The notes beneath the pieces were generated by a model. That model did not search any database, had not been told where the DNA came from, and worked only from the letters and a program-made list of their open reading frames with translations. 64,000 bases of DNA from Reclinomonas americana ATCC 50394 (Eukaryota), in contig PS015009.1 of assembly GCA_048213135.1 (NCBI GenBank), positions 1,054,001 to 1,118,000 of the forward strand. Direction: 5' to 3'. Below, one piece after another: positions 4,703-60,070 of the stretch (its first letter is position 1; every line of letters starts with the position of its first letter). The position numbers and the translations under genes are program-made.

Positions 4703-5441
4703 ATGTCATCCCGACGAAAGAGCCTGTCCCGATGAGGAACAATATCGGGAAGGTATCTCATGTTCCGCCGGGGTCTCCGGTACGGGACCCCTGAGGGCCC
4801 CTGAGATTTTTTTCACAGAAATGTATGGGGGCTTTCACAGAGGATGTCATCCTGATGGAGGAGGAGTATTAAGTTCCGACGGGGTCTCCGGTACAGNNNN
4901 NNNNNNNNNNNNNNNNNNNNNNNNNNNNNNNNNNNNNNNNNNNNNNNNNNNNNNNNNNNNNNNNNNNNNNNNNNNNNNNNNNNNNNNNNNNNNNNNNNNN
5001 NNNNNNNNNNNNNNNNNNNNNNNNNNNNNNNNNNNNNNNNNNNNNNNNNNNNNNNNNNNNNNNNNNNNNNNNNNNNNNNNNNNNNNNNNNNNNNNNNNNN
5101 NNNNNNNNNNNNNNNNNNNNNNNNNNNNNNNNNNNNNNNNNNNNNNNNNNNNNNNNNNNNNNNNNNNNNNNNNNNNNNNNNNNNNNNNNNNNNNNNNNNN
5201 NNNNNNNNNNNNNNNNNNNNNNNNNNNNNNNNNNNNNNNNNNNNNNNNNNNNNNNNNNNNNNNNNNNNNNNNNNNNNNNNNNNNNNNNNNNNNNNNNNNN
5301 NNNNNNNNNNNNNNNNNNNNNNNNACAGGACCCCGGTGAGGTTTTTCACAGAGATATACGGAGGATTTTCACAGAGGATGTCATCCTGACGGAGGAGGAA
5401 TATTAAGTTCCGACGGGGTCTCCGGTACGGGACCCCGGTGA
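4703..5441. repeat. Tandem array of ~102-111 bp palindrome-containing units spanning the N-gap
   Basis: Unit TTTTCACAGAG..TTCACAGAGGATGTCATCCTGAyGGAGGAGG..TAAGTTCCGACGGGGTCTCCGGTACrGGACCCC on both sides of the gap; equivalent positions at 4782, 4893, 5325, 5427. Confidence 0.85.
4897..5324. other. Assembly gap (N run)
   Basis: 428 N, flanked by the same repeat unit. Confidence 1.
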
Positions 5442-43048: not shown

Positions 43049-43693
43049 TTAATTCTTAATACAACGTACCGACAGTCCCGCTTTGTGATTGCATACAACA
43101 CCATAGGCGTAAGCAACGCTGTAATGAAGGGGATAATAAATTGAAGATTGCGGTTGCGTTTCAGAAGCACTCCACCAATTCCCCGATTGGCCTGCTTCTT
43201 TAAATACGCCGTTAAGCCGAATACCCCCGGGCAAGCCTAAGAATCCGCTGCTGTTGCTGGCACCCGTATTAGGCGCTTGCCATAAGGAAGAAACGGCCTT
43301 CATTTTACCGCTTGCAGCCGCGCTGCCACCCAGGTAATTATTCAGAACAAGCCATTCCGCATCGTTTGGGATATGCCACCCGTTGGGTGCCAGGCCTCTT
43401 GGATCACTCACTGCGTACCAGTTATATAATTTACCGTAAACAGCATCATTCGACGGGTCATTGTTATAATAACACCAGGCACCAGTGGTTAATGCCTGCC
43501 ACTGTGTAACATCCGCAACCTGCGGTATAGGATCACCGTTACTATACGTAGTTACATCCAGGTTGTACACAGACCAAACCTGTGTTCCAATGGTCACTTT
43601 TGGAAGATCAGCTGCAGGCGTTTCTTTATTTTTTTTACAGCCAGAGGATAACAAGGCAACCCATGTCAGCAGAAATAACAAATATTTTTTCAT
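43049..43693 (-). CDS. Fibrobacter succinogenes major paralogous domain (FISUMP) lipoprotein
   Basis: IGTQVW..NL, YGKLYNWYAV, PNGWHIP..EW, GFLGLPGG, GLSVRCIK. Confidence 0.93.
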   Translation of the reverse strand: MKKYLLFLLTWVALLSSGCKKNKETPAADLPKVTIGTQVWSVYNLDVTTYSNGDPIPQVADVTQWQALTTGAWCYYNNDPSNDAVYGKLYNWYAVSDPRGLAPNGWHIPNDAEWLVLNNYLGGSAAASGKMKAVSSLWQAPNTGASNSSGFLGLPGGIRLNGVFKEAGQSGNWWSASETQPQSSIYYPLHYSVAYAYGVVCNHKAGLSVRCIKN

Positions 43694-43743
43694 GTATCAG
43701 GCTTTACTTCAGATGTACATACTCATTTCAAAACCTCAACCAC

Positions 43744-44136
43744 TTACGCATTGCTCGGTCCCAGGAAAACAGGTTTCGTCGCTTTTAATTTTTTCCCTTT
43801 AAATACTGAAACAATTACTTCTGCCCTTATAAAGGAATCATTAGGGATTCGACCCGAAATAATCACAGGAGAAGTATTTACCAGCGGTTGATCACTTATC
43901 GGGCGGCATATTGATCCGTTTTTGTTGATTATTACCTTCTTATCAAAATCTACCGGGGATGTAACAAATACAGGTCCTGTGGTCTCTATTCTAAGCAACC
44001 TGACTAAAGATATACTTACAGAACAGTCAAATGTGGGTCGAAGCGCTTCGGCAAAGCCATAGGTCCCATTTAAAGAGATTTTCAAAACAGATCCCTGTTT
44101 TTGATACACTGCCGAAATAATTAGTTCCAGTGCCAT
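43744..44136 (-). CDS. Hypothetical protein
   Basis: 130 aa from ATG 44136. Confidence 0.5.
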   Translation of the reverse strand: MALELIISAVYQKQGSVLKISLNGTYGFAEALRPTFDCSVSISLVRLLRIETTGPVFVTSPVDFDKKVIINKNGSICRPISDQPLVNTSPVIISGRIPNDSFIRAEVIVSVFKGKKLKATKPVFLGPSNA

Positions 44137-44410
44137 AGGGTAATTTTTACAGGTGAAATAATTTACACGAATACACAAAATAATTCGACCCTGTTAAATC
44201 CCCATTGAGCCATTCCCGTATTCCACTTATCTGGTGGCGGAAAACACCAGGCTGGGCTTATTAATACAGGTTGTTAAGCAATGTGATTATTTGCCGTGTA
44301 TTCGCAATTAAGTACTCCAGGTGATGATGACACACACCGGCGACTTAGTGGAAGGATTAACCACAACCAGAGATGGGTTACAGACAACGGCAAACAAGGC
44401 GAAGCTAATT

Positions 44411-44523
44411 CACCAGGTTGGAATACTTGTGCCAGAGAGGGGAAACATGTTGAAAACTATATCAACCCGGACACAGTCCGGTAGAATTTACAGACACCAA
44501 TGAACAGCCAAGGCGGAACACTG
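44411..44523 (+). repeat. Rhs-array hairpin repeat doublet at the distal end (second copy interrupted by IS110 mini-element)
   Basis: GAATACTTGTGCCAGAGAGGGG, 30-bp linker ATATCAACCCGGACACAGTCCGGTAGAATT identical to 54960-54989, then GACACCAATG..GAACACTG. Confidence 0.8.
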
Positions 44524-44778
44524 GCCTTTACTTTGATTAGCAGAGTTTTTATTAACTTTTAAAAAGGAAAGCAGAGGTGAACTATAACACTTGCTAAGCT
44601 TACGACTTAACTGGCGCATCAGTCCTCTGCCTACCTTTTAACTATGTTGAATGGCATCAAATAGAATGTTAGACTTTCAGGTCTATTAAAGGCTTTAATG
44701 CATTTCAACTTTTGTTTTTGCTTAAATCAAATTTATGAAAAATTATGTAGTCACAGTAGGCATTGATGTATCAAAAGC
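44524..44778 (+). mobile_element. Truncated IS110-family mini-element (left end, bridge RNA, first codons of the recombinase)
   Basis: GC dinucleotide at both ends; removing the element restores AACACTG-GC-GCCAGAGG; carries MKNYVVTVGIDVSK. Confidence 0.85.
44560..44710 (+). ncRNA. Predicted IS110 bridge RNA (target-binding and donor-binding loops)
   Basis: Stem AAAGG..GCAGAGG/CCTCTGC..CCTTTT with loop strands AACACTTGC (44586-94) and CTGGCGC (44611-17); stem GTTGAA..GCAT/ATGC..TTCAAC with loop strands ATAGAATGT (44661-69) and TAAAGGC (44687-93). Confidence 0.8.
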
Positions 44779-44794
44779 GCCAGAGGTTCTATAA
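44735..44794 (+). pseudogene. IS110 DEDD recombinase N-terminal remnant
   Basis: MKNYVVTVGIDVSKA then flanking sequence and stop; GIDVSK is the first catalytic Asp motif. Confidence 0.8.
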
Positions 44795-45333
44795 AATAAG
44801 TTGCAGTAAAAATTTCGTGCCCCCTGCAGCAAGTTCTGCATTATTTCTCTTGACTAATTCTAGGCCATTTCTTGAGAATAGTAACTGAGGGTATTCTACC
44901 GATTTAATTAAGAATCGTTTTTTAAACTCTTTCAATATAGTATCTGCCCAGTCCTTAAATCCTTGCTCTTTTTCAACTGCCCTATCATGATCCGAATAAT
45001 ATTTCAAAACATAATAAAGACGGCCTCTTTGTAATTCTTTGTTGCTGTAAGGGTAAAAACCTCCAATATCAAACTCGATACAATAACTCTTAAGTATCCC
45101 TATAAAGTATTTTTCATCTTCCAGATGCTCAATGCTAAGTAGTTTTTCATACTCCTTTTTACAGATATACACTTGAAAAATTTTTTCTTTATTGCTTACA
45201 ATATCATAGCTATTAATAACGCTATTTTTTTTATGTCGCCTTTTAAAATTTTGCAATGCCTGTCATTGAAAAATTTAATGACCTCTGTATAATCATCAGG
45301 CGTGATAAAAAAATTTATTTGCTTGGAATTCAT
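44789..45333 (-). pseudogene. Putative immunity protein, frameshifted
   Basis: ATG 45333 MNSKQINFFITPDD.. joins ORF 44789-45256 across an A8 run near 45225-45232. Confidence 0.65.
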
Positions 45334-45339
45334 TTTATC

Positions 45340-45810
45340 TTATTTATTATACGGTATATAGGTAGGTCTTATGCCAGTAACTTTTTCAACATCATCCATT
45401 GCTTTTCTTTCTCGGATTACTGGGGTTCCATTTTTATTCTGCTTGCCAACTTAAACTTGCTTTGTCTCTCCAGTTTTAGTCTTTGTTCCTTGAACATCAA
45501 TAAAATGCTTATCCTTATTACCTCCTGGTGTTCTGACCATGACTTCTCGTTGTGTTTTGTCATATCCGTCATTTTTTAGTTGCTTCTCGGCTTTATCAAT
45601 TGTTTCCTGATGAGCTTTTCCGCCATTCTTACCATTGGGATTAGGGACCTTATTTCCTGTAACATTAGTAGTTGTTGCTTTAGCTGATACCACGGCTGAA
45701 GCTGCTGCACCGCTTCCAGTTTTAATTCCCGCAGCAGGCGTCGAAATACTTTTAGTATATGTTTGTCTTTCAACAGCAAGATCCATTTGAGCTGCGGAAG
45801 CTCCTCCACT
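45340..45810 (-). pseudogene. Decayed orphan toxin tip (nuclease-like) with internal stop
   Basis: PNPNGKNGGKAHQ..EV.VRTPGG..FIDVQG..QV*VGKQNKNG..RERKAMDDVEK..PYNK; TAA at 45451-45453. Confidence 0.65.
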
Positions 45811-45845
45811 AAGTAATGCCTCTGGATGAGGGCAACATACCCAAT

Positions 45846-45923
45846 GGCGACAGCGGCGCCAGAGGGGTAGGCGGCACGTAGAATTAAACAGTACAGGTAT
45901 CTTGCAAAAAACTTGTGGTAGAG
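45846..45923 (+). repeat. Rhs-array hairpin repeat plus half-site
   Basis: GGCG..CGCCAGAGGGG then GTAGAATTAAAC AGTACAGGT ATCTTGCAAAAA ACTTGTGGT AGAG. Confidence 0.75.
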
Positions 45924-45939
45924 TATTTGTTACTAAATT

Positions 45940-46487
45940 TTATAGCAAGAATTTTTCTAGTGGCTTAAATATAGAGCTAACGCCTTTATTAAGCCCCTCT
46001 TTATACGCCTTCAAATATTTTTCAGATAGTTCGGGGTTCTCGTAAAAGTATAACCTATATAATTCAAATTTTGCATCGTTAATTAGTTCTTTCGCGAAAG
46101 ACTTTCCTCTTGAATATTCTTGCTTTGCAATTACATTTACTCCAAGTTTTATAATTCTTTTAAAACAATATTCGGCAATATGATTTTGATGGCCATATTT
46201 TCTTATCTTACCCATAGTATAAAGGGTCTCTGCATTGTCATCATTTATTTTAAAAGCCTTAATAATATATTTTTCGACCATTCTCCATTTCCTAACATTA
46301 ACTTCTTTACGCATTTTATTACTGCCATCTTCAAAGATACTTTCATCAAAAAAAGTCTGCGCAATACATTGAAGTAAGTAAAATTATTTTTGTACTCTAA
46401 TTTTTGAATATGTGCTCTTGCTTTAGGCGAATCAATTGCAACGACATCTCTATACTTATGAAGTAACAAATCGAATTTATCTATCAT
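45940..46487 (-). pseudogene. Helical (TPR-like) putative immunity protein, frameshifted
   Basis: MIDKFDLL..KNNF joins LLQCIAQTFFDE..MRKEVN via a frameshift near 46380; preceded by a short toxin-tail remnant (..RAREQAAADKKKK). Confidence 0.6.
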
Positions 46488-46903: not shown

Positions 46904-47896
46904 TTAAAAAGCTAATACAGGGCTTAATATTGGTGCCGCAGCTCCATCTGTTGCTATAACAACAACCCACGCTCCTAGTACCGCTGCAACATGTCCCATT
47001 TCTTTTGGAACCTTTGTTCCATATGGAGGAATAATTACTCCAGGAGGAGCTGGGTACGGAGGAGAATTTGACAAGGACTTAAAAAATTCGGAAGTTTTAT
47101 CAACTTGACTAGACCCCTTTCCTAATTCATACCCAAGCGAGGCTCCTGCAAAATCAGGGAATTTTTCTTTCCATTTATCTAACGCTACCGATTTATATGT
47201 TGGCACGCGTTTTTCATCTGCCTCTTTTATCTTTTCACCTGTTTCTGGATCATATGCTCCCTGATGTTTTCCTCTTCTATTATAAACCTCAACTTCCCCA
47301 TGTTGAAAATCCCATTCCGCATGCCAGCCTTTATCTAAACTCCAAGCTGGTCTGGCGCCATTCTTATGTTTAAGTCTTCGTGAATCTTCAAAGCCGGGGA
47401 GTGATTTTTTATACTCCGGAGGAACTGGGTAATAACCTTTGACAGTATCTCCAGGCACCATTCCATCTGAATCTACGAACCTTAATGGATTATTATAGGC
47501 ATAACAATAAGGAGACCATCTTCTACTTTTATCAGACAGGGGGTCAGAAACAAACCATCTTCCAATTTGCCCATCATACATTCTCGCACCATAATCCACC
47601 CATTCCAATCCACTGCCATCGCTAAACTCTTTTCCCTGCTTCTCCTTACCACTATACTGGTATTTATTTTCCATTCCTCCGGCCGCCTTACTACTTATTC
47701 CCGCCATCGTCAACCCAAACGGATAATAATGCGTTTCTTCCAGTAAAGGCCCACGATTATGAATAACTTCTAAATTATCAAAGAACACATCAACGTTGCT
47801 TTCGTTGCTGCAATAAATATACACAAATCCTGTTTTTGTGACCGGCACATTTTGTAAAAAATGAGACTTCAGCCCGCCCGTAGACCCACTGTTCAC
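46904..47896 (-). CDS. Orphan Rhs core/tip with colicin E3-like (Cytotoxic) RNase domain
   Basis: [24 protein letters not shown], then [24 protein letters not shown]; 5' truncated, core homology extends to ~47972. Confidence 0.85.
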
Positions 47897-47990
47897 CGCA
47901 TCAAACCCGGCTGTTACATAATTGAAATGATCATCAAAAAATATGTAATTAATGGCGGCTTTTACATTGTTAGTCGTAAGTCCGGAAGAG

Positions 47991-48035
47991 AGAATTAAAC
48001 GATACTAGTACTCTTGCGGAACACTTGCTCAGAGA
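47991..48035 (+). repeat. Rhs-array hairpin repeat
   Basis: AGAATTAAACGATACTAGTACTCTTGCGGAACACTTGCTCAGAG. Confidence 0.8.
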
Positions 48036-48138
48036 AGAGATTCCACCATTTCTTATAATCGGGTCTGTTTGAATCATAAGGATTATTTTTATCTGGCGGC
48101 CATTTCATAAATGAACACCGCTATTTAGGAATAATACT

Positions 48139-48774
48139 CTACCTTATGGGGAGGTACTTAAAATCAAATACTTCACTAGCTCTGTCACTTAGAACTACCA
48201 TACCGACTTCATTTTTTTGACAGCTTTGCTCATCGACAAATGACAAATATCCAACCATAGCATTTATACTCTTACAAAGCTGATATATAAACTCCTTCCA
48301 AAAAAACACTCCCCGTTTTTGTACTAATGTCTCATCGAAAAAAAGAGTGACTTCTCCTTTATAAGGTGGTTCCGAAACACTTGGCCTTAAAAGCCTATTT
48401 CCAGAACCGCTTTCCCAAATTGGCCCAAAACGATGGTTCTCAATCCGTCCTTCGATTTTATCCTTTTTTACTTTCTTGAAATAGAATGCGCCTCCTGGTT
48501 GGCTGAGCCAACTTATTGGCCCGGCTAACTCATGCTCATTAAATGATCTATTAATTGGCTCATAGGCGTTGCATTTATCAGGTTTTAAAAAACCATTATC
48601 ATAAGTAGAAATAAACCTAATAAGCGTTTCAGCCAAATCATTCCATAATACTTTATTCAAAATAAATTCCGAATAGTCTTTCGATGAAAATTGCACATTT
48701 TCAGACAAATACTTAACAATCGAGTTATCAGTAAAATCTTGTTCCGTAAATATTGTTAATTGTAATTCCGGCAT
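48139..48774 (-). CDS. Orphan putative immunity protein
   Basis: 211 aa AT-rich ORF preceded only by a ~22-codon toxin-tail remnant. Confidence 0.65.
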   Translation of the reverse strand: MPELQLTIFTEQDFTDNSIVKYLSENVQFSSKDYSEFILNKVLWNDLAETLIRFISTYDNGFLKPDKCNAYEPINRSFNEHELAGPISWLSQPGGAFYFKKVKKDKIEGRIENHRFGPIWESGSGNRLLRPSVSEPPYKGEVTLFFDETLVQKRGVFFWKEFIYQLCKSINAMVGYLSFVDEQSCQKNEVGMVVLSDRASEVFDFKYLPIR

Positions 48775-48861
48775 GATTTCTTTTTATTGAGGTCCTATAT
48801 CTGTACGCTTTATAACTTCGGTTTTTGGGATATTCTTTGATATTTTAGTCTTTGTGCCAGC

Positions 48862-48963
48862 GAGATTTCAGCTTGCCTGTAGAACCGCTGTTCACCACAT
48901 CAAACCCGGCCGTTACATAGTAAGATAATCGTTGAGAAATGTCCAGTTCACATATGCTTTGAG
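48862..48963 (-). pseudogene. Rhs pre-core fragment ending at a repeat half-site
   Basis: LKAYVNWTFLND../YVTAGFDVVNSGSTGKLKS abutting TTGTGCCAGCGAG (48852-48864). Confidence 0.7.
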
Positions 48964-49090
48964 TTTAACGCAGACATAGGTTTGGTTGTTTGAAAATAAG
49001 TATTAGGGGCTAGTGATATCAAAAATCGGTTGGTGATAACATCAACCGCAGTAAAGCGAAAACCCTTAATGGGGCTTTGTTGATTATGTA

Positions 49091-49816
49091 CTATAAATAA
49101 TTTTCAAGAACAGCCGATAAAGGAGTTTCTTTATTGTATAGCCTAAAAATCTGTTTGTTTACATCTAAAAATAAGGCGATCTTTTCCCCATTGTAAAATA
49201 AAAAAGGATTCCATGTTTTACCGTCTTTATCGAGTTCCATATGCCACATAAGTTTATTATTATAATTAATAAAAACTTCTCCAATTAAAGCTAAACAATT
49301 GGCAAAATTCTCCCTGTAAAAATGAAAAGGTTTTTCTTTTTGTGCAATTAAGCATTCTACTCTTTTTAATAAATTCTTATCAACTTTAGGGTTATCCTTA
49401 ATATTCAATTTTAATAGAAGTTCTTTAATAAGAGTAAGCCTATTTTTATAAAACTCTTTCCCTTCTTTATTCTTTCCGAACATTACTGTATGAGATATTA
49501 CTTCAGAATAATATCCATCATTCACTACAGCATTAAACTCTTGTTCATTTTCAAACAAAATAGCCTCATCTACTAACTTTAATATTATTTCTTTATTGTC
49601 ATTAATGTATATGTCCCCAGATATATTTCTAGGTACTTTTTCATATTTAGTTAAGACTTTATTGGCAACTAAACTATCAACACTTCCCTCCTTTAATATA
49701 GTTGCAAAAACAAAGTTACCGTTAGTCAAATCATGCAGAACCATATTTTCAGTTTTCATCTGAGAAAAAGTATTTATGTACATACAAATATTAAATATTA
49801 AAAAGAATGCTCGCAT
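49091..49816 (-). CDS. Putative immunity protein with signal-like N terminus
   Basis: 241 aa, starts 5 bp after the toxin stop. Confidence 0.7.
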   Translation of the reverse strand: MRAFFLIFNICMYINTFSQMKTENMVLHDLTNGNFVFATILKEGSVDSLVANKVLTKYEKVPRNISGDIYINDNKEIILKLVDEAILFENEQEFNAVVNDGYYSEVISHTVMFGKNKEGKEFYKNRLTLIKELLLKLNIKDNPKVDKNLLKRVECLIAQKEKPFHFYRENFANCLALIGEVFINYNNKLMWHMELDKDGKTWNPFLFYNGEKIALFLDVNKQIFRLYNKETPLSAVLENYL

Positions 49817-49820
49817 AAAA

Positions 49821-51104
49821 TTAATTTATTAACCTGAATGGCTTTTTCAACTCTGCATCATTGCCAGCCCTTCGAATTAAGGTTGTAGGCATTGTTCCGC
49901 CAACCCCAAGAGTACTAGTAACTGTATTTAATACCGTGACCCCCGAGGAGACTCGGACAGTACCATCACTACTTGTGCTTTGCTCCACCGTTCGTTGCAT
50001 CAATTGTACATTCCTAGAAGTCGCATAATCAATTAACCCCTGGTCGATTTGTGTATTTGCTGGTGTAACTAATGTTAAGTTTGCCATACCCAAATCCGAA
50101 GGTTTTAAAGACGCATCATATACGCCATTTTTAGTGCCGCCGCTCATGTCTGCTAACGCATCAACCATCGTTTGAAGTTGCCCAGGGTTCCATTGATCTT
50201 GTGTCGTAATTTCTGACTTAAATTTAACTTCGACAAAACTGGCTTCTTTAAAAACATATGAATCTTTGGGCTTTCCATTATTATCATATACTATACCAGC
50301 AGAACCCGTAACCATATCAGGTTCGACTTTTGAGGCCCTAGATATACCAGAATATTCTTTGTAATTTTTTTCTCCGTTCAATGAACTTATAACCGCATTC
50401 TCAAATATCCTACCTAAATTTTTTACATCTAGTTTGCAAGCGCCACAGTTTTGCGTAACAACTCCATTTTTAAACCCCAATGCTATTAAGTCAGATGTAT
50501 TAAATGACTTGTATGGCCTATCGTCTGCAGGCTTTGCCTCCATTCCATCAGGGTCTATAAATCTCATTGGATTATTATACGCATAATTGTAGGGGCTCCA
50601 CCGACGCATCTTATCTGACAAAGGGTCAACAGTATGCCACCTTCCTATTTGAGGGTCTTGCATCCTTGCGCCATAATCATACCAATCCAATCCGCTTCCA
50701 TCACTGAACTCGTTAGATTGTTTCTCCTTACCGTTGAATTGATATGTATTTGTGAGAGCACCTGCAGCGTTACTCGATATCCCACTCATTGTTAATCCAA
50801 ACGGGTAATAATGCGTCTCCTCCAGCAAAGGTCCCCTCGAATGTATAACTTCCAGGTTATCAAAGAACACATCAACGTTGCTTTCGTTGCTGCAATAAAT
50901 ATACACAAATCCTGTTTTTGTGACTGGCACATTCTGTAAAAAATGAGACTTCAGCCCGCCCGTAGATCCACTGTTCACCGCATCAAATCCGGCTGTTACG
51001 TAGTTAAAGTGGTCATCAAAAAATATGTAATTAATGGTGGCTTTTACATTGTTACCCGTATTGGGAGGAACGACATTGGTAAAACCCTCGATAGACGTAA
51101 CCAC
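49821..51104 (-). CDS. Orphan Rhs core/tip with putative PD-(D/E)xK nuclease
   Basis: [38 protein letters not shown]. Confidence 0.8.
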
Positions 51105-51234
51105 AAAAAAGTAAGAGATTCATTATTTCATCTCTACGACTCTCTTAAACAGCAACGCATCATCAACATTCCAAAAAAACAATGTCGCTTACAACAATAG
51201 CAAACAATAAAGTTCCCCATTGAAGACTTCTGTA

Positions 51235-51684
51235 TTATTCACACTTACTAAGCGCTTCTTCTAACGCTTTAGAGATTTCTTCTACACTTGCTTTATCTAG
51301 AACTTCTATTCTTTCCTTGGAAACATTTATAAAACCTTTACTTCCTTCGTTTTTCATTGGTGTAAAAATCAATATGTCATTTTTTTTAAGAACACTTACA
51401 TGAATACTGTCTTTGTATAAATCACTTTGCTTTTTTAATCCAATGCTATTTAAAAATTCTTTTGATGATTCTTTCCAGTCTGTTGGGTTAGGTAATCCCA
51501 TTTTACTGCAACTCAAAGCTTGTTTGGTTTGTTTAACCACTTCAGCTAATGTATTATTGCCATTTAGCCAAACAAATGGCTCTGATGCTATACTTAATCC
51601 CATTTGCAAACGTGACAAACTATGGACTAAATATTTGTTCTGCTTTATCAATTTATAAATTGACGCTTGTTGTATTGTTTCCAT
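51235..51684 (-). CDS. CdiI-like (DUF1436-type) immunity protein
   Basis: ALSCSK, G.KKQSDLYK, IFTP, EEISKALEEALSKC; adjacent to the CdiA-like tip. Confidence 0.75.
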   Translation of the reverse strand: METIQQASIYKLIKQNKYLVHSLSRLQMGLSIASEPFVWLNGNNTLAEVVKQTKQALSCSKMGLPNPTDWKESSKEFLNSIGLKKQSDLYKDSIHVSVLKKNDILIFTPMKNEGSKGFINVSKERIEVLDKASVEEISKALEEALSKCE

Positions 51685-51685
51685 A

Positions 51686-52954
51686 TTATTTTACAAACTG
51701 AAGATTAAAATTAATGCCTTTGTCCTTTGCATATTTTATTGCTTCGCTTATTTGTTCCCATTGTTGCAATGATGCTTTTCCTGGCTCTATAGCTACCTGA
51801 AGTGATTTACTTGTGAAGTTAACTCCTTCAGTTGCTGTTACTCCTTCTCTTGTTGCTGTAGTAAAATTGTCCAACTTGTTTACATAGCCTTTCAACGTAC
51901 TTAATAAACCGTTTCCTTCATTATAACTCTTTGCGGTTAAATCAACACTTTTGATACTTGTAGCTACGCCATCAACAAGTTTATCTATAACAGGAAAGTT
52001 CTTGGGCAGGTTACCGCCTAATGCTTTTTCAATCATTAGGCCTCTTTCTAAGCTATTTGTCATCCTCCAAACACTTGATGCACCTCTGAACTCTCCTACA
52101 ATTGGAATAAAGTTTAATACCTTTTCGGTAGTAGAAAGTTTTTCATCTGTAAAAAAATCTTTACCAGTATAAGCTTGGTATATCCACTTGGCAATATTTA
52201 CGCCGGGAATAAAATCAGTAATAATACCAAGTTTTTGAGGCGCTGCTGCGTGATACCCATTTTCAAAAGCCTGTACATTTCTTTTTAATGCCGCAGGGTC
52301 CTTGCTATCTTGAGCTAAACCCATCCGGGCATACATGTGTATGTCAACTGCCTCTAACCCTTCTAATTCAAAATGTGAGGTTACTTTGTTTTCAGAGAAG
52401 GCATACGTACTATTATAAATGAATCGATCTGCAAGAGGGTCTATTTGCCAGAATCTTCCTGTTTGACAATCTTCCATTCTGTATTTGAACTCGTACATGC
52501 TAATGTCAAAGTCATTAGTAAATTCCTGCCCTTGAAATCTCTGTTTCGTATTTTCGAAAACACCTGCCGCCTTAGAAGATATCCCCGCCATCGTCAATCC
52601 AAAAGGATAGTAATGTGTCGCTTCCAGCAAAGGTCCTCTGGAATGTATGACTTCCAGGTTATCAAAGAACACATCAACGTTACTCTCGTTGCTGCAATAA
52701 ATATACACAAATCCTGTTTTTGTGACCGGCACATTTTGTAAAAAATGAGACTTCAGCCCGCCTGTAGATCGGCTGTTCACCGCATCAAACCCGGCTGTTA
52801 CATAGTTAAAGTGGTCATCAAAAAATATGTAATTAATGGCGGCTTTTACATTATTGCTGGCGTTGGGCGGGTTGTTATTGGTAAAAATACCGATCGGGGT
52901 CACTGTACCACCCGTATTGTTATTAAGAATAGTACTGGTAGCGCCATGCTGCAC
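51686..52954 (-). CDS. Orphan Rhs core/tip with pre-toxin TG-like segment and CdiA EC869-like DNase
   Basis: HFELEGL, DFIPGV..TGKDFFTDEKLS, LPKNFPVIDK..GVATSIKSVDL...SY, LKGYVNKL. Confidence 0.85.
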   Translation of the reverse strand: MQHGATSTILNNNTGGTVTPIGIFTNNNPPNASNNVKAAINYIFFDDHFNYVTAGFDAVNSRSTGGLKSHFLQNVPVTKTGFVYIYCSNESNVDVFFDNLEVIHSRGPLLEATHYYPFGLTMAGISSKAAGVFENTKQRFQGQEFTNDFDISMYEFKYRMEDCQTGRFWQIDPLADRFIYNSTYAFSENKVTSHFELEGLEAVDIHMYARMGLAQDSKDPAALKRNVQAFENGYHAAAPQKLGIITDFIPGVNIAKWIYQAYTGKDFFTDEKLSTTEKVLNFIPIVGEFRGASSVWRMTNSLERGLMIEKALGGNLPKNFPVIDKLVDGVATSIKSVDLTAKSYNEGNGLLSTLKGYVNKLDNFTTATREGVTATEGVNFTSKSLQVAIEPGKASLQQWEQISEAIKYAKDKGINFNLQFVK

Positions 52955-53109
52955 CGCTGTATTGGCGCCTCCAGACAGAACTCTTGCTATAGAGGACTTG
53001 TAACTATTTTTATTGCGACTCCTCCATAATAATATTTTTGTTAGAGTCTTCTTTTATATATTCCGTATTTTTAATGCCAAAGGAAATTATTTAAAATAAT
53101 TAAAAATTA

Positions 53110-53673
53110 ATGCCCCCTTTATATCAACTCAAGGAACTTGGCTTTAAGAAGCAATTAGCATTTGCATATCTCACATGTGAACGCCTATTTCCTAATTACG
53201 TTTTTTTTTCCAACAATTTCTCTTTCGGAAACCCTAACTCACTTAGACAAGCTATTACTTCTATTTATCAGTATCTTTTGGGAGAGACATCAGATAAAAA
53301 CAGAATAATTCAAGAAATAAAAGAAACCGAAACTAATACCCCTGATACAAACGATTTTCCAACCATTTTTGTTTCCCCAGCTCTAGATGCATGTACTTGC
53401 ATCTTAGATAGCTTGAATTTTATCTTAGACCATGATTTTAATAATATTGAAAGCATATCTTCATATGGCCTTGAAAGTGCAAGCACTTTAATCCAGGAAG
53501 CAGATAATATTAGTTTAAGCTCTATTTCAGAGTTTCAAGAAAAAATATATCCACATCCTTTGATGCAACAAGAAATTAATATTCAGTCCGGTATAATTAC
53601 TTTTCTAAGTAAGAGTCAGCAGATTGATGCAGATGACATAACAATTTTAATGCATCTTCAGCAAAAGCAATAA
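53110..53673 (+). CDS. DUF416/YjaG-like protein, putative immunity (inverted orientation)
   Basis: QLAFAYLTCERLFPNY..F, PDTNDF..PALDAC, HPLMQQE. Confidence 0.8.
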   Translation: MPPLYQLKELGFKKQLAFAYLTCERLFPNYVFFSNNFSFGNPNSLRQAITSIYQYLLGETSDKNRIIQEIKETETNTPDTNDFPTIFVSPALDACTCILDSLNFILDHDFNNIESISSYGLESASTLIQEADNISLSSISEFQEKIYPHPLMQQEINIQSGIITFLSKSQQIDADDITILMHLQQKQ

Positions 53674-53679
53674 AATCAA

Positions 53680-54816
53680 TCAATTTTTTATTCCCTTTAT
53701 GATGGGTTTAGGTATGTATGTTGATGCTGCAACTGCTTTCATAGAATAGGTTTTTAGAGGGCTGGCTGCTCTTGCACTAGCATTGTCTATTGCAGTGGCA
53801 CAACTAGAACAAATTGGTCGGCTAGCCGCTACTGCTTTTACTGTCATATTATTAGCCTTAGCATAGTTCAAAATCGTAGTTTCTGCATGTCCATCACCTG
53901 ACACAGCCACTTCTCCTTTCTTTAAAGCAGCAAGCTGTGGGGTTCTCAAACTATTTTCACTAAATGAAACTAATATTGTTACTTCCCCTTCAGAATTAGC
54001 GGCAGCTCCTACAGCCGTCGTCGTATATCGTTGAGTTGAAGTACGTAACGATCCTTGTATTTCTGAAGCTCTCAGAAATAGATCTTTACCAGGAGATGCA
54101 GTTCTAAAAGCAGTTCCAGTTACTAAGGCTGCTTCCGTAGGAATTTCAGCTCCAATTAACATAGATGCTGCTGCATGGTAAACTTCGGCAGCAGGCTTAT
54201 TCATTTCCAGCAACCCTGCATTTTGCTGAACAGATCCCTTTAACGCATGCATTTGTTCTGAAATAACTCCTTGCTCTTTATATTCACCAGCATTAGATTT
54301 TGCTAATACTTCGGAGCCATCAAGAAAATCCTTTTTTCCTCCATATAAATTTATAGTCCAGTCCTGTAATTTTTGCGCAAACCATGACTCTAAGCCTTCT
54401 AATTCAACATGGTTCGTTACTTTGTTTTCACTAAAAGCATAAGTACTATTGTAATTATAATCTTCTGAAAGAGGGTCAATTTCAACAAAGCGACCTATCT
54501 GCGGATCATGATTTCTCCACTTAAACTGAACCCAATCCAAATCGAGTTCATCGTCAAATTTCTGTCCCTGAAAGGTTTTTTCCTTATTCTCCATCCCTCC
54601 CGCCACCTTACTACTTATCCCTGCCATCGTCAACCCAAACGGATAATAATGCGTTTCTTCCAGTAAAGGCCCACGATTATGAATAACTTCTAAATTATCA
54701 AAGAACACATCAACGTTGCTTTCGTTGCTGCAATAAATATACACAAATCCTGTTTTTGTGACCGGCACATTTTGTAAAAAATGAGACTTCAGCCCGCCCG
54801 TAGACCCACTGTTCAC
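53680..54816 (-). CDS. Orphan Rhs core/tip with zinc-dependent deaminase domain
   Basis: HVELEGL, then GHAE..ASRPICSSC (HxE..PxCxxC); core homology extends to ~54892. Confidence 0.85.
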   Translation of the reverse strand: MNSGSTGGLKSHFLQNVPVTKTGFVYIYCSNESNVDVFFDNLEVIHNRGPLLEETHYYPFGLTMAGISSKVAGGMENKEKTFQGQKFDDELDLDWVQFKWRNHDPQIGRFVEIDPLSEDYNYNSTYAFSENKVTNHVELEGLESWFAQKLQDWTINLYGGKKDFLDGSEVLAKSNAGEYKEQGVISEQMHALKGSVQQNAGLLEMNKPAAEVYHAAASMLIGAEIPTEAALVTGTAFRTASPGKDLFLRASEIQGSLRTSTQRYTTTAVGAAANSEGEVTILVSFSENSLRTPQLAALKKGEVAVSGDGHAETTILNYAKANNMTVKAVAASRPICSSCATAIDNASARAASPLKTYSMKAVAASTYIPKPIIKGIKN

Positions 54817-54892
54817 CGCATCAAATCCGGCCGTTACATAGTTAAAATGGTCATCAAAAAATATGTAATTAATGGCGGCATTTACATTGTTA
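54128..54892. repeat. ~770-bp near-identical direct repeat of 56163-56928
   Basis: Rhs core plus ~90 post-cleavage codons shared with the full-length gene. Confidence 0.9.
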
Positions 54893-54910
54893 CTCGTAAG
54901 CCCAGAAGAG

Positions 54911-55030
54911 AGAGTTAAACGATACTAGTACTCTTGCAGAACACTAGTATCAGAGAGCAATATCAACCCGGACACAGTCCGGTAGAATTAAACGGCATAA
55001 GTGATCTTGCAGAACACTTGTGCCAGAGAG
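54911..55030 (+). repeat. Rhs-array hairpin repeat doublet inserted in an Rhs pre-core sequence
   Basis: GATACTAGT..ACTAGTATC and GGCATAAGTG..CACTTGTGCC hairpins with TCTTGCAGAA loops. Confidence 0.88.
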
Positions 55031-55088
55031 GGGTCACTGTGCCACCCGTATTGTTATTAAGAATGGTACTGGTTGCGCCATGCTGTAC
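55030..55088 (-). pseudogene. Rhs pre-core fragment
   Basis: VQHGATSTILNNNTGGTVTP, matching the full-length gene at ~56967-57025. Confidence 0.85.
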
Positions 55089-55136
55089 AATCATACTATT
55101 GGAATTGTCAATAGGGCTTCTCAAATAAACTTCTCA

Positions 55137-55760
55137 TTAACCACCTTTTCCTACATCAATCTTAACCTCATTAATAACTGTGCCTTCTGGTAAATCTTTA
55201 ACCTTAAAATATAGCTGTTTACAAATTTCCCAATACACTTCAATATTCCAGATTTCGTAATTATCAATATTATCATCCCCACCTAAAAACAATGGCACTT
55301 TATATCCTAAACACTCATTGTATTTAGTTTCCTGCTGATTAAGATGAAGAAGCACTTGCCTGAAAAAATTTATTGAAAATAAACTATCCATATCTTCTTC
55401 GGTACTAATTTTATGAAAATCAATTATAGTTTGTTGTAATTGAAAAACTTCGTAAGTAGCAGGATCAAACATAAAAATATAATCGTCTTTTATACTAGTG
55501 CAAAAATGTCTTCCCATCCAGTCGAAAGCAAATGGGTAGATCATGTTTTGATAATCGTTAAAATATGACGCAATAATAAATGACCACTTGGTGCTTGTTT
55601 GAAAGGAGTGGACTCGATATAGCCCCTTGTCAAAAGTACACCCTCCATACTGTGATAGCACTTCAAATAAATCATCAGGAAGATTCTTATAGAATGTTTC
55701 ATCTTCTGTCAAACTTTCCTTGGAAGTAACCTTGCCTTTACTAAGAAATGTCGTAAGCAT
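55137..55760 (-). CDS. Tdi1/DUF1851-like immunity protein
   Basis: YGG..F..GLYRVH, FAFDWMGRHF, CLGYKVPLFLGG.D...NYE; directly after the HNH toxin. Confidence 0.82.
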   Translation of the reverse strand: MLTTFLSKGKVTSKESLTEDETFYKNLPDDLFEVLSQYGGCTFDKGLYRVHSFQTSTKWSFIIASYFNDYQNMIYPFAFDWMGRHFCTSIKDDYIFMFDPATYEVFQLQQTIIDFHKISTEEDMDSLFSINFFRQVLLHLNQQETKYNECLGYKVPLFLGGDDNIDNYEIWNIEVYWEICKQLYFKVKDLPEGTVINEVKIDVGKGG

Positions 55761-55762
55761 AC

Positions 55763-58700
55763 TTATTGCTTCTTTATTGGTTGGATTAAAATTACTTTAT
55801 TCACTTTCGAATTGTCTGGCAAATTTTTAATTTGTGATTTTATCTGGCTACCAAAACTACGATTAACACTTTTATCCAAAGCCTGGAGATTATTCAATTG
55901 ATCGTTTCCTCCTAATTGTAACTCCACAATATGATCAACATCATCTGTAGGTTTAACTTGTCCACCTGCTTTTACAAATTTACCGCGAAGATTGGCTTGG
56001 CGTGCAACAGGGTTTTTAGTCACGATAGTTTCTGCCTTTGTCAATGCTTCTGCTTTTGCTTCTGCTTGGGCGATTTGACTTGCGTCCCAAGTTGCTTTTG
56101 CGTTAATAGTCAAATTGACCCCTTGGTATTCGGCCGTTTTAAAGGGTGTTCCTGTTATCAAAGCTGCTTCCGTAGGAATTTCAGCTCCAATTAACATAGA
56201 TGCTGCTGCATGGTAAACTTCGGCAGCAGGCTTATTCATTTCCAGCAGCCCTGCATTTTGTTGAACAGACCCCTTTAACGCATGCATTTGTTCTGAAATA
56301 ACTCCTTGCTCTTTATATTCACCAGCATTAGATTTTGCTAATACTTCGGACCCATCAAGAAAGTCTTTTTTTCCTCCATATAAATTTATAGTCCAGTCCT
56401 GTAATTTTTGCGCAAACCACGACTCTAAGCCTTCTAATTCAATATGGTTCGTTACTTTGTTTTCACTAAAAGCATAAGTACTATTGTAGTTATAATCTTC
56501 TGAAAGAGGGTCAATTTCAATAAAGCGACCAATTTGCGGATCATGATTTCTCCATTTAAACTGAACCCAATCTAAATCAAGTTCATCGTCAAATCTCTGT
56601 CCTTGAAAGGTCTTTTCCTTATTCTCCATTCCTCCCGCCGCCTTACTACTTATCCCCGCCATCGTCAACCCAAACGGATAATAATGCGTCTCTTCCAGCA
56701 AAGGCCCTCTTGAATGTATGACTTCCAGGTTATCAAAGAACACATCAACGTTGCTTTCGTTGCTGCAATAAATATACACAAATCCTGTTTTTGTGACCGG
56801 TACATTTTGTAAGAAATGAGATTTCAATCCGCCCGTAGATCCGCTGTTCACCGCATCAAACCCGGCTGTTACATAGTTAAAATGGTCATCAAAAAAGATA
56901 TAATTGATCGCCGCTTTGACATTATTACTGGCGTTGGGCGGATTGTTATTGGTAAAAATACCGATCGGGGTCACTGTACCACCCGTATTGTTATTAAGAA
57001 TGGTACTGGTAGCGCCATGCTGCACCGCCGTATTGGCCCCGCCGGCTACTCCCAGGAAAGCGGCAATAATATCCGTAGCATTGAGCGGCGCATTATTCGC
57101 TTCGCTTGTAGTATAATAATAACTCTTCCCCAGTATGTTCAGCGTATCGCCTGCCATCACCCGCAGTACCATGCTCATGCCGGTCTTATTGGTACCGGAG
57201 TTCATTTTGTACATTTTCTGGCTGTTGGCATTGGGGCTGCCAAAGGTATTCGGGTTGTTGGTGCCGTTGTCGTTGGTATATGATGGTGAGGTTGTTTTAG
57301 ATTGTACATAGCCCGTGTTAAAGTCGTAGTAGGCCTGCTCCAGCTGAACAGGGCTGCCTGAGCCACTGCCCTCAAGAGTAGCGGTTGGATAATGGTCTAC
57401 CTGCCGCTCTTCGGTAAGCACCACGCGAACATTCCCCAGGTGATCTTTAAGGAAGTAGTCAAACACCGACTCATTCACCCCTGGTTTAAAACGGATCCTG
57501 CCCTCCTCATGGGAGGCAAACTGCAAAGTGTCATTCTTATATTCAAAACCGCTGATGTAGTCGGTTGTTGTAACTACGGCTCCTTCCGTTACTTTTTTCC
57601 GCAGTTTGTTTCCTGAGGCACTGTATGTGTATTCAATGGTGCCTTTCAGCCCTCCCCCGCTGTTGCTCACACGGATACGGTACGGAAGGTTCAGGTGATT
57701 GTAATAAATACTGTCGATCCGTTTATTCTTATCTGCCCTCAGGTTACCGTTGGCGTCATAGAGATAATCATCGTTACTGGTATTGACGTCGGTAAAGTCT
57801 CCCAACTGGTTGTTGGCTGATCCAATGCTGCCATCTTCCGTTACAGAAAGCAGTTTATTGCTGACGCCGCTATTCATATAAGCATAACTCATCTTATCAA
57901 TCACAGAACTGGCATTTATTTTCAGCCCTTTCTGTTTCATGAACAGGATATTGCCATTGGCATCATACCGCATACTGTCAACGGTAAAATCAATGTTGAA
58001 ATTGCTGTTGGAAGGATCCGTAGTGGCCCAGCTTGTTCCGAATCTTTGCGTAAAGGCTGCAGACAGTATCCTGTTTACATTATCATACGAATAGTCAAAT
58101 TTTCTTTTCTCCTGGTCCCCGCCCGATTTCCAGATGGAGCCGCTTATGTTACCGTTAAACTGGGGAGCAGCAAATGTAGTACTGCTTATGGATGCATTGG
58201 ATTTGTCGTACCCCAGTTCATACCCGAACCAATGCGTATTGATCGAGTCCTTTATGTATTCTTTATTAACAGAAGATATCCAGCCCCGGATATTATACTC
58301 GTGCACCAGTTTCTCTGTTACCCCCGATGCTGAATCCCCTACTATTTTATTTTTCAGCTGCCCCAGTTTGTCGTACTGGTTGGTCACGATTGTTTTTTCA
58401 GCAGTTGAAGTAGTATCACCTTTTATGATGCTCTTCATCATCTTTTTGATCTTCAGCAAACGATTGCCATGGTCATATTCCATTTTGGTATGTATCCAGT
58501 GTTCCTGGGAATTTGTACCTGCATTGGCATGTTGCTGAAGAATACGCAAAGGATTCCCAGTCCAGTCATACTGGGTAGTGGTTATATCCTTTCCCCCGGT
58601 AATATTGGTGCTTTGGCTTTGGGATACTTTGCCTTTATCATCATAAAAATTAACCGTATAGAGATACTGGCTGGCAGTTCCGAGCACTTTCGTTCTCATC

Positions 58701-60049
58701 CCGGTCGCCAATCCACGTACAGATACTGTCCCGGCTATACTTTGGGCATATTCCGGGGCCGAGGTGCTGGTATAAAAATAATTGCTGTTGGAGGTATTAC
58801 TGTTATCCAGGCTGCTGCCCAATCCTGTGCCGCTTACCCAGCCATAGGTATCGTAATAGGTTTCGGTAAGTATTTCGTAATTCGTGGTAGTATCAAGGTC
58901 ATTGGGTGCCGGATAAGTGGCAACACTTGCCGCGGCAGACTGGTGTGTTTCCCTGCTGCTGGCATTTGTCCATAAACCGGTCCTTAGCGGGCGTTGTAAA
59001 TAATCGTATTCTGTAACCTGCCATTTTCCTTTCACCATCAGGGCACTGTCCTGCATCATTACCAGCCGGTCGAGCATATCATACACCATTGATACCGGTC
59101 CAGCCCCCGGAACTTTCTTTATGGTCATCCTGTTGCGGCTGTCGTACTCATACCTGAAACAGAGTTCCGGCAACACATTCGCGTTATAAGTGAGGTTCCA
59201 GCTATTGGCGGAGATCAGCTCTACTGCCCGCGGAGGAATAACCAGGCGCAGGTTATTAAAATTGTCATACACATAGTAAGTACTGAACCATCCATAGTGG
59301 CCATCAGACACTGTAGCATTGAACTGTACCCGTTTCAGTATTACCTTCCCTTCCTTATCCTTAAACTCAATGACCCGTTTACCATGCTCATCTATCGTTA
59401 CCGTTTTGAACAATTCTCCTGCACCGTACATAACACTTGTGGTGTAGGTTCCATTGCTGTTCACCACCCAAACCCGTACAGAATCAGCAGCCGTATTAGC
59501 CAGGTATTGATTCTGGATTGAACGATGGCTACCGGGGCTACCCACCCAGCTGTCGCCAGGGGTAAATGTTTCCAGCATCCTGTTTAACGGCGAAGCCTCA
59601 AAACTGGTCTGGCCGTAATAATAATTCTCACCGGGATATTGATTTTGCGAAAATGTTTTCTGCTGCTGAAAAGCGTTGATCTTAAAATTGCCGTCATTGG
59701 TTACATCCGTTCCTGCAGCCGTAGTAATGGATTCATACGGGAGGTATTTGTATACTTCCCGGGCATAGTCATCATAAACCTGGGCCGTTACCATATCCTT
59801 TTGGTCCGGACTGATCTTCTTTATAACCGTCTGCACCGGGCGGCCAAAGCCATCCAGGTATTGTGTCGTTTGTTTTGAGTACCTCACATCTTTTGCCTTC
59901 AGGGAGTCCGCATTGCGTTCGGGCATCGTTGCATCCCAGGTACGTACATAACTAACCTTCGCTCCGCTCAGGTAAGGCGTGGGTGGCGTTACCTGCGCAA
60001 CTGAGGCCAGGCAGGCAAAAGAAAAAAGTATAGAAAGTAAGTGTTTCAT
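55763..60049 (-). CDS. DUF6443/RHS repeat-associated core protein with C-terminal HNH nuclease
   Basis: Signal peptide, YLDGFGRPVQ, YD repeats, [34 protein letters not shown]....NNLQALD..VN. Confidence 0.93.
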   Translation of the reverse strand: MKHLLSILFSFACLASVAQVTPPTPYLSGAKVSYVRTWDATMPERNADSLKAKDVRYSKQTTQYLDGFGRPVQTVIKKISPDQKDMVTAQVYDDYAREVYKYLPYESITTAAGTDVTNDGNFKINAFQQQKTFSQNQYPGENYYYGQTSFEASPLNRMLETFTPGDSWVGSPGSHRSIQNQYLANTAADSVRVWVVNSNGTYTTSVMYGAGELFKTVTIDEHGKRVIEFKDKEGKVILKRVQFNATVSDGHYGWFSTYYVYDNFNNLRLVIPPRAVELISANSWNLTYNANVLPELCFRYEYDSRNRMTIKKVPGAGPVSMVYDMLDRLVMMQDSALMVKGKWQVTEYDYLQRPLRTGLWTNASSRETHQSAAASVATYPAPNDLDTTTNYEILTETYYDTYGWVSGTGLGSSLDNSNTSNSNYFYTSTSAPEYAQSIAGTVSVRGLATGMRTKVLGTASQYLYTVNFYDDKGKVSQSQSTNITGGKDITTTQYDWTGNPLRILQQHANAGTNSQEHWIHTKMEYDHGNRLLKIKKMMKSIIKGDTTSTAEKTIVTNQYDKLGQLKNKIVGDSASGVTEKLVHEYNIRGWISSVNKEYIKDSINTHWFGYELGYDKSNASISSTTFAAPQFNGNISGSIWKSGGDQEKRKFDYSYDNVNRILSAAFTQRFGTSWATTDPSNSNFNIDFTVDSMRYDANGNILFMKQKGLKINASSVIDKMSYAYMNSGVSNKLLSVTEDGSIGSANNQLGDFTDVNTSNDDYLYDANGNLRADKNKRIDSIYYNHLNLPYRIRVSNSGGGLKGTIEYTYSASGNKLRKKVTEGAVVTTTDYISGFEYKNDTLQFASHEEGRIRFKPGVNESVFDYFLKDHLGNVRVVLTEERQVDHYPTATLEGSGSGSPVQLEQAYYDFNTGYVQSKTTSPSYTNDNGTNNPNTFGSPNANSQKMYKMNSGTNKTGMSMVLRVMAGDTLNILGKSYYYTTSEANNAPLNATDIIAAFLGVAGGANTAVQHGATSTILNNNTGGTVTPIGIFTNNNPPNASNNVKAAINYIFFDDHFNYVTAGFDAVNSGSTGGLKSHFLQNVPVTKTGFVYIYCSNESNVDVFFDNLEVIHSRGPLLEETHYYPFGLTMAGISSKAAGGMENKEKTFQGQRFDDELDLDWVQFKWRNHDPQIGRFIEIDPLSEDYNYNSTYAFSENKVTNHIELEGLESWFAQKLQDWTINLYGGKKDFLDGSEVLAKSNAGEYKEQGVISEQMHALKGSVQQNAGLLEMNKPAAEVYHAAASMLIGAEIPTEAALITGTPFKTAEYQGVNLTINAKATWDASQIAQAEAKAEALTKAETIVTKNPVARQANLRGKFVKAGGQVKPTDDVDHIVELQLGGNDQLNNLQALDKSVNRSFGSQIKSQIKNLPDNSKVNKVILIQPIKKQ

Positions 60050-60070
60050 AAAATTCGTTTTGGGTATGAT

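Follow-up and report, generated by a model that had tools for sequence, protein, structure and literature searches.

A truncated IS110-group element with an intact bridge RNA, lying at its own guide-matched target beside an Rhs toxin locus

How does a bridge RNA gene of the IS110 group come to stand, with hardly any recombinase gene behind it, exactly at the site that its own guides specify? The question is raised by positions 44526-44776 of a 64,000-nucleotide (nt) stretch of DNA from contig PS015009.1 (positions 1,054,001 to 1,118,000 of the forward strand; assembly GCA_048213135.1, Reclinomonas americana ATCC 50394), the whole of which is called the window below; here the left end of an IS110-group insertion sequence (IS), its bridge RNA gene and the first 14 codons of a DEDD recombinase are followed directly by the core dinucleotide and the right half of the target. 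A preliminary description, made from the letters alone, had presented this unit as a non-autonomous mini-element that could act in trans. The evidence assembled here points to a different history: very probably, the unit is a truncated copy at its own target, the truncation having most likely been made by the recombinase, and it would now be immobile and at most weakly expressed. The attribution of the element to Bacteroidota would follow from its named relatives and from gene content; the S9 peptidase, compared with 401 genomes of the phylum of G001, had a closest match at just 44% identity, too distant to place the organism.

In the IS621 study (PMC11208160), the 5' side of a bridge RNA's internal loop is described as carrying 8-9 nt that read as the top strand does, and the 3' side as carrying 4-7 nt complementary to that strand. 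The window copy is laid out in the same manner, and with its surroundings it comprises the following features.

44517-44523, plus strand: left target half-site AACACTG in the flank, identical at 6/7 non-core bases to the left target guide AACACTT, which is also what the uninterrupted paralogues read
44524-44525, plus strand: core dinucleotide GC of the left junction, the same as that of the right junction
44526-44776, plus strand: truncated IS110-family body of 251 bp (left end, bridge RNA gene, recombinase codons 1-14), homologous to the left ends of 19 relatives
44526-44531, plus strand: right-donor half-site CTTTAC, the first bases of the element; core plus left end (GCCTTTAC) agree with GCCTTTAA at 7/8
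44529-44535, plus strand: -10-like TACTTTG, left-end half of a putative junction promoter
44562-44639, plus strand: target-binding stem-loop (loop 1) with basal stem AAAAGG/CCTTTT, upper stem GCAGAGG/CCTCTGC, internal loop and apical hairpin
44586-44594, plus strand: left target guide AACACTTGC, 8/9 against flank plus core (AACACTGGC), covarying with the left flanks across relatives
44611-44617, plus strand: right target guide CTGGCGC, whose reverse complement GCGCCAG is found at 44777-44783 (7/7)
44646-44709, plus strand: donor-binding stem-loop (loop 2), with compensatory changes in stem and apical hairpin
44661-44669, plus strand: left donor guide ATAGAATGT, its ATAGAAT being invariant in 14/14 aligned bridge RNAs
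44686-44693, plus strand: right donor guide TTAAAGGC, reverse complement GCCTTTAA
44710-44720, plus strand: T-rich tract past the donor-binding stem, a possible 3' end of the bridge RNA; relatives have a similar tract
44735-44776, plus strand: codons 1-14 of the DEDD recombinase (MKNYVVTVGIDVSK), with ATG at 44735; the frame continues into the flank as far as a stop at 44792-94
44777-44778, plus strand: core dinucleotide GC of the right junction, as read from the sequence
44779-44783, plus strand: right target half-site GCCAG in the flank; the uninterrupted paralogues also read GCCAG
55013-55026, plus strand: uninterrupted target paralogue AACACTT-GT-GCCAG, with further copies at 44422-44435 and 54939-54955

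The element begins at 44526 with CTTTACTTTG, the sequence beyond 44776 continues as GC-GCCAG-AGG, and the two junctions share an identical 2-nt core with no longer target duplication, the unit measuring 253 bp; a GC core had been proposed beforehand, and GC is indeed what stands at both places. The rule for loop 1, namely that its 5' side reads as the left target plus core and its 3' side is complementary to the core plus right target, holds in the window (8/9 and 7/7). For loop 2 the left-end half holds as well, the reverse complement of the right donor guide agreeing with core plus left end at 7/8, or at 7/7 over the span used in the preliminary description, and the right-end half does not: the right boundary ATCAAAAGC (ATCAAAA-GC) agrees with the left donor guide ATAGAATGT at 5/9 only, whereas the loop-2 rule holds in 13/13 full-length relatives. 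Placed against the flanks of unrelated elements, the window's two target guides score far less, 4.25/9 and 3.42/7 on average, and the sole non-cognate 7/7 is given by L019, a relative whose right target guide is identical to that of the window copy. The earlier claim that the guides account for the insertion site is thus borne out, as is the identification of an IS110-group left end with an intact bridge RNA, its two stem-loops with internal loops and its 14 recombinase codons all being present; what lies here is a genuine bridge RNA, placed at the target that it specifies.

The relatives on which these comparisons draw were collected in steps. A BLAST search of plasmids returned an IS110 element on a plasmid from Chryseobacterium, 73% identical to the window in a portion of the RNA region, and the two blocks common to this element and the window were turned into an exact gapped pattern; genome-wide, the exact pattern matched one locus, in a Pelobium metagenome-assembled genome, a slightly shortened version matched 17 metagenome loci, and viral contigs were unmatched by it. 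Together with the plasmid element, 19 loci carry the loop-1 scaffold of the window. Contigs end at or before the gene start in six of them (L006, L008, L010, L011, L013, L018), and the remaining 13 show the right end. All 13 have a recombinase open reading frame (ORF) of 330-337 amino acids (aa), with PF01548 (DEDD_Tnp_IS110) and PF02371 (Transposase_20) in the three ORFs tested (L012, L019, L002); compared with solved structures, the L012 recombinase matches best the ISCro4 transposase (9t56, 4.3e-26, residues 6-322), followed by IS621 (8wt6, 6.7e-26). The right end predicted in the preliminary description from the left donor guide is found without exception, the last seven bases being ATAGAAT and the next two the core in 13/13; this core is GC in four (L007, L009, L012, L019), AC in six and AT in three, so that ATAGAAT-GC itself ends four elements. 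The left end, where visible, is kept as C(T/G)TTA(C/G).

The same loci show that the guides follow their flanks. Across 17 loci, the left target guide agrees with the left flank plus core at 9/9 in nine, at 8/9 in three (the window included), at 7/9 in two, at 6/9 in one and at 5/9 in two, both of which improve with a 1-nt shift, while non-cognate comparisons average 1.2-4.3; among the 12 relatives with a readable right flank, the right target guide agrees at 7/7 in five, at 6/7 in two, at 5/7 in four and at 2/7 in L014. Many of these loci are near-identical copies, and the number of independent guide sets is about ten; guides as different as AACCTAC, GACGCTT, CCAGCTC, GATGCTC, ATCCCTA, AAATACC and AACACTT each pair with their own flank, and L019, with the right target guide of the window, has GC-GCCAG after its element. 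Across orthologues the loop 1 guides are thus variable and the loop 2 guides conserved, the donor guides being common to the whole subfamily. Full copies had been expected in relatives, and they do possess a full-length recombinase ORF, the ATAGAAT end and guide-matched insertion sites; none of them carries the window's loop 1.

A separate observation concerns the cores of some sub-lineages, in which the two junctions differ in the first core base, the left one reading GT and the right one AT in L001, L004 and L017, and GC and AC respectively in L016; in these four, each core tracks the target guide of its own side. This suggests a requirement limited to the second core base and to a purine in the first position.

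As to the structure of the RNA, the two-loop fold claimed at the outset is obtained from the single sequence, yet its energy is not better than that of shuffled sequences (z = -1.34), and for this reason the structure was tested on relatives, which do support it. Each of 14 sequences folded alone yields two units of stem, internal loop and hairpin (14/14), and the consensus fold of the 14 aligned RNAs has 23 pairs, nine of them with compensatory changes; such changes are present in the basal stem of loop 1 and, in the donor-binding loop, at stem columns 103/147 (seven sequences) and at apical hairpin columns 121/129 (five sequences). At no invariant or nearly invariant alignment column does the window RNA depart from the consensus. 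The covariance models of Rfam 15, run over 43500-46000, gave chance-level matches only (E > 1), and a terminator scan did not call the T-rich tract at 44710-44720.

Homology to the recombinase genes of the relatives ends after codon 14; in tblastn, the recombinases of 12 of 14 relatives match these codons over residues 1-14/15 with 46-71% identity and individually weak E-values, the L007 and L014 queries being unmatched there, and with the same 14 proteins the rest of the gene was not found in the 64-kb window. The open frame runs to a stop five codons past 44776. About 1.1 kb of the gene, which in its complete form encodes a DEDD RuvC-like and a Transposase_20 domain, is gone, and the window copy is therefore a derivative and not an autonomous member of the group. 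Also missing is the ATAGAAT right end for which the donor-binding loop is built; a unit resembling a miniature inverted-repeat transposable element (MITE) keeps both recombination boundaries, and here the right boundary is without ATAGAAT. A covariance model of the RNA finds one copy of the unit in the 64 kb.

The loss of the right end bears on expression. In the relatives, TTG stands 11-12 nt before ATAGAAT in 13/13 right ends and TA(C/G)(T/A)TT at bases 4-9 of the left end; when the two ends are joined in a circle, these putative promoter halves would come to lie 17-18 nt apart, resembling the junction promoter of IS621, whose -35 box lies in the right end (PMC11208160). The window has the -10-like half and lacks the right-end half, and no sigma-70-like promoter was called upstream in situ. 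With its right end the copy would have lost the -35 half of this promoter, and the bridge RNA would accordingly be made in situ at most weakly; for integrated IS621 loci, weak expression of the bridge RNA is reported (PMC13626964). One RNA run (X13) yielded a single contig, which follows 44459-44524 and then continues into an uninterrupted target-like site, the element lying outside its coverage.

To see how often such units occur, the covariance model was applied to 151 genomes of the order of G001, with 29 hits in 22 of them; subtracting G001's own copy leaves a census of 28 hits from 150 other genomes. An ORF of 322-350 aa follows 23 of the 28 and a frameshifted full-length gene follows four; the remaining one (L062, genome G060, oriented locus ~2380-2400) is an internal-deletion derivative keeping both ends, its recombinase being cut after about residue 231 and resuming about 15 nt before the right-end ATAGAAAT. 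Bridge-RNA-only copies number 0/28. When the unit was compared by BLAST with 401 genomes of the same order, 11 genomes gave matches, from which loci in G001, G223 (two), G042 and G383 were examined and seven matches of 26-40 nt (L024-L030) left out; none of the examined loci bears the window's loop 1, and both G223 loci are truncated and decayed left-end remnants. One of them (L021) consists of a decayed bridge RNA and 19 codons, and of the seven bases that come next, 6/7 are those expected from its own right target guide when this is reverse-complemented; the other (L031) has lost loop 1 and retains a 33-aa frame. A full-length recombinase was not found in G223 with the L002 protein as query, and this genome may be incomplete.

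How, then, did the copy lose its gene and right end? Truncation by the recombinase itself is the most likely answer, because the break falls exactly at the core plus right target and because L021 repeats the pattern. Two routes can be imagined. In one, the left junction would be joined to an internal GC to give a partial circle, which would insert at the cognate target on a match in the right-donor half alone; in the other, a full copy would insert, and a later excision would run from the internal GC to the right junction. Two 2026 preprints bear on this: partial IS110 circles that reuse the right-donor terminus, and for which a half-match suffices, are reported in one (Hu et al., bioRxiv 10.64898/2026.08.14.744561), and insertion when just one half of the donor is matched in the other (Xie et al., bioRxiv 10.64898/2026.08.31.748434). 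An ordinary deletion in a full-length copy, by replication slippage or through GC microhomology, with an exact right end by coincidence, would produce the same sequence and deserves a hearing, given that truncated and frameshifted IS copies are common (the four frameshifted genes and the internal deletion of the census are examples), that GC flanks the putative deletion on both sides as a 2-nt microhomology, and that L007 and L014 have TCAAAGC at the same position of the gene. It is nevertheless unlikely: the right end point coincides with the terminus of the element to the base, with core plus right target at 7/7, which a random end would hardly achieve; L021 also resumes at a match to its own right target guide; and the one plain internal deletion seen, L062, retained its right end. 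Several points weigh against the favoured account and have to be set beside these. The two recombinase routes and the GC microhomology deletion are indistinguishable on present data; the internal boundary, tried as a pseudo donor site and discarded as such, agrees with ATAGAAT through ATCAAAA at 4/7, near chance, several such sites being expected per 1-kb gene; L021 is decayed, and its left target guide needs a 1-nt shift to agree with the flank, and then at no more than 6/9. Among the relatives found, none is a full copy bearing the window's loop 1, and the parent element is accordingly one that we infer; the invariance of the loop-1 upper stem was imposed by the search pattern and is uninformative; the recombinase search spans the 64-kb window, and a cognate gene may lie elsewhere in the genome. 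Finally, all uninterrupted copies of the target have the core GT and the occupied site has GC on both sides; the core before insertion may have been either of the two. The copy itself, lacking the left-donor site and half of the promoter, is for that reason probably an immobile and poorly expressed fossil.

The opposite view, that the 253-bp unit is an active non-autonomous element which receives its recombinase in trans, gives its bridge RNA in trans, or both, is improbable. In its favour, no conserved position of the bridge RNA is damaged, and the donor guides are subfamily-wide, so that any member's circle would fit it. The IS621 bridge RNA is reported to work when expressed in trans (Durrant et al. 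2024, PMC11208160); elements of the IS110 family with a recombinase gene alone, about 800 bp long and without a 5' untranslated region, have been described, and their authors suggest a bridge RNA in trans (10.64898/2026.08.14.744561); half-match donors can reportedly recombine (10.64898/2026.08.31.748434); and MITEPpu9 is a precedent for an RNA module riding on an IS110-family transposase (PMC12288879). In principle, the RNA could also act in trans on related elements. Of the mini-element of the preliminary description there remains a left end with its bridge RNA; the ATAGAAT right end, the right promoter half and an in-window recombinase do not, and a canonical non-autonomous mobile unit is contradicted by the 5/9 match at ATCAAAA-GC, and no bridge-RNA-only copy is among the 28 hits elsewhere. 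Further against it stand the single copy in 64 kb, the failure to call a sigma-70-like promoter upstream, the decay of the similar remnants in G223, where the L002 query brought up no full-length recombinase, and a G-to-T difference at 44664, inside the invariant ATAGAAT guide, in one contig (depth 5.4) of run X1. A broader version, in which IS110 elements naturally give rise to bridge-RNA-only units time and again, partial circles with just the right-donor terminus and the bridge RNA gene inserting at the site that their own target loop names and being stored there as a spare guide, is a shade less probable still; were it true, the shared donor guides (ATAGAAT, CTTTA) would let the spare guide redirect a related full-length or recombinase-only circle to a new target. 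That the whole arrangement is an assembly artefact or chimera, a contig joining an IS left end to unrelated sequence in a site surrounded by repeats, has a negligible probability. The contigs of run X1 (44462-44729 and 44714-45100) cross both junctions, the left junction being crossed in this one run, and the right junction is crossed with 0 differences by X1, X2 (contig from 44758) and X3 (44695-44845), from three studies; both flanks moreover fit the guides and the paralogous motif, and no loose end is listed at 44776. X1 may be related to the source sample, its independence not being assured, and, besides the change at 44664, it has 10 differences from the window in the left flank; X2 has a hole at 44541-44757, and runs with a word share of 0.22 contain the repeated flank module only, without the element.

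Compared with IS621 (Durrant et al. 2024, PMC11208160; Hiraizumi et al. 2024, PMC11208158), the window copy shares a noncoding RNA that is encoded in the left end, ahead of the recombinase gene and in the same orientation, the two stem-loops with internal loops, a 3' side complementary to the core plus 5 nt, the 2-nt core at both junctions and a repeated intergenic target, while its subfamily shares the variable loop 1 and conserved loop 2 and has putative -35-like and -10-like halves that would be split in the same way between right and left ends. It differs in belonging to another subfamily, with named relatives in Bacteroidota (Pelobium, Chryseobacterium) and cores GC, AC and GT/AT, and, as regards the window copy itself, in having no convincing 5' stem-loop, no Rfam match, no right end and no complete recombinase gene. 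The likeness of the L012 recombinase to the ISCro4 transposase (PDB 9t56), its best solved-structure match, is one at the level of sequence. Among the partial circles of 10.64898/2026.08.14.744561, a configuration like that of the window copy, with the right-donor terminus kept next to an unrelated internal boundary, is reported as frequent; the papers on partial circles and half-matches deal with circular intermediates and expanded loci, whereas the window holds an integrated 253-bp product of which neither circle nor parent was observed. The nearest chromosomal parallel is MITEPpu9/ssr9 of ISPpu9 (Pares-Guillen et al. 2025, PMC12288879), likewise an IS110-family RNA module without a transposase gene; ssr9, however, lies downstream of the transposase gene, was unneeded for transposition, is not the guide RNA, keeps the boundary sequences that circles require and is present in eight copies, whereas in the window the module is the guide RNA proper, has one boundary missing and was seen once.

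IS110 bridge RNAs are known by the thousands; the RNA described here is not new in itself, and what is modestly unusual is the precise core-plus-right-target junction without a right end. With the wordings tried, and with supplementary tables outside its range, a literature search found no paper on bridge-RNA-only units, although such units or this subfamily may already be listed in those tables. At this locus each of the four guide segments can be compared with an actual junction, which makes it a clean example from nature, and the subfamily, with its invariant donor pair and its varied targets and cores, may interest those mining for bridge recombinases. If partials made by the recombinase are common, integrated RNA-only units would be a genomic trace of partial circles and half-match reactions, and they could be the source of trans bridge RNA postulated for recombinase-only elements.

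The surroundings of the element are repetitive. The left flank is part of an intergenic module of about 73-95 nt, bearing the target motif at its 3' end and a hairpin CCGGAC-ACA-GTCCGG, of which copies occur at 44400-44523 with 44779-44786, at 54911-55030 and at 47991-48037 (44461-87 being identical to 54962-88); it is rather like a repetitive extragenic palindromic sequence used as an IS110 target. The motif GAACACTnGnnnCAGAG has three uninterrupted occurrences against 0.02 expected, and the X13 contig mentioned above reads uninterrupted AACACTG-GT-GCCAG. A candidate for a right end was also considered at 48481-48495 (plus strand), where ATAGAATGC followed by GCC, inside an ORF at 48139-48774 (minus strand), resembles the right end of the element plus the start of the right target; it is probably a chance occurrence, no recombinase homology being adjacent and about 0.5 chance occurrences of the 9-mer being expected. 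Elsewhere in the window, a run of N at ~4897-4902 falls inside a repeated sequence of 41-62 nt (repeat families D7 and D8).

The insertion site lies at the end of a minus-strand Rhs/YD toxin locus with orphan cassettes. This polymorphic-toxin locus occupies 46904-63793 and comprises an RHS-repeat protein (60071-63793), a DUF6443 protein (55763-60049) and then orphan C-terminal cassettes every ~2035 nt; the ORF at 46904-47896 carries a Pfam 'Cytotoxic' domain (colicin-type RNase), and each cassette is followed by small ORFs without a Pfam family, possibly immunity genes.

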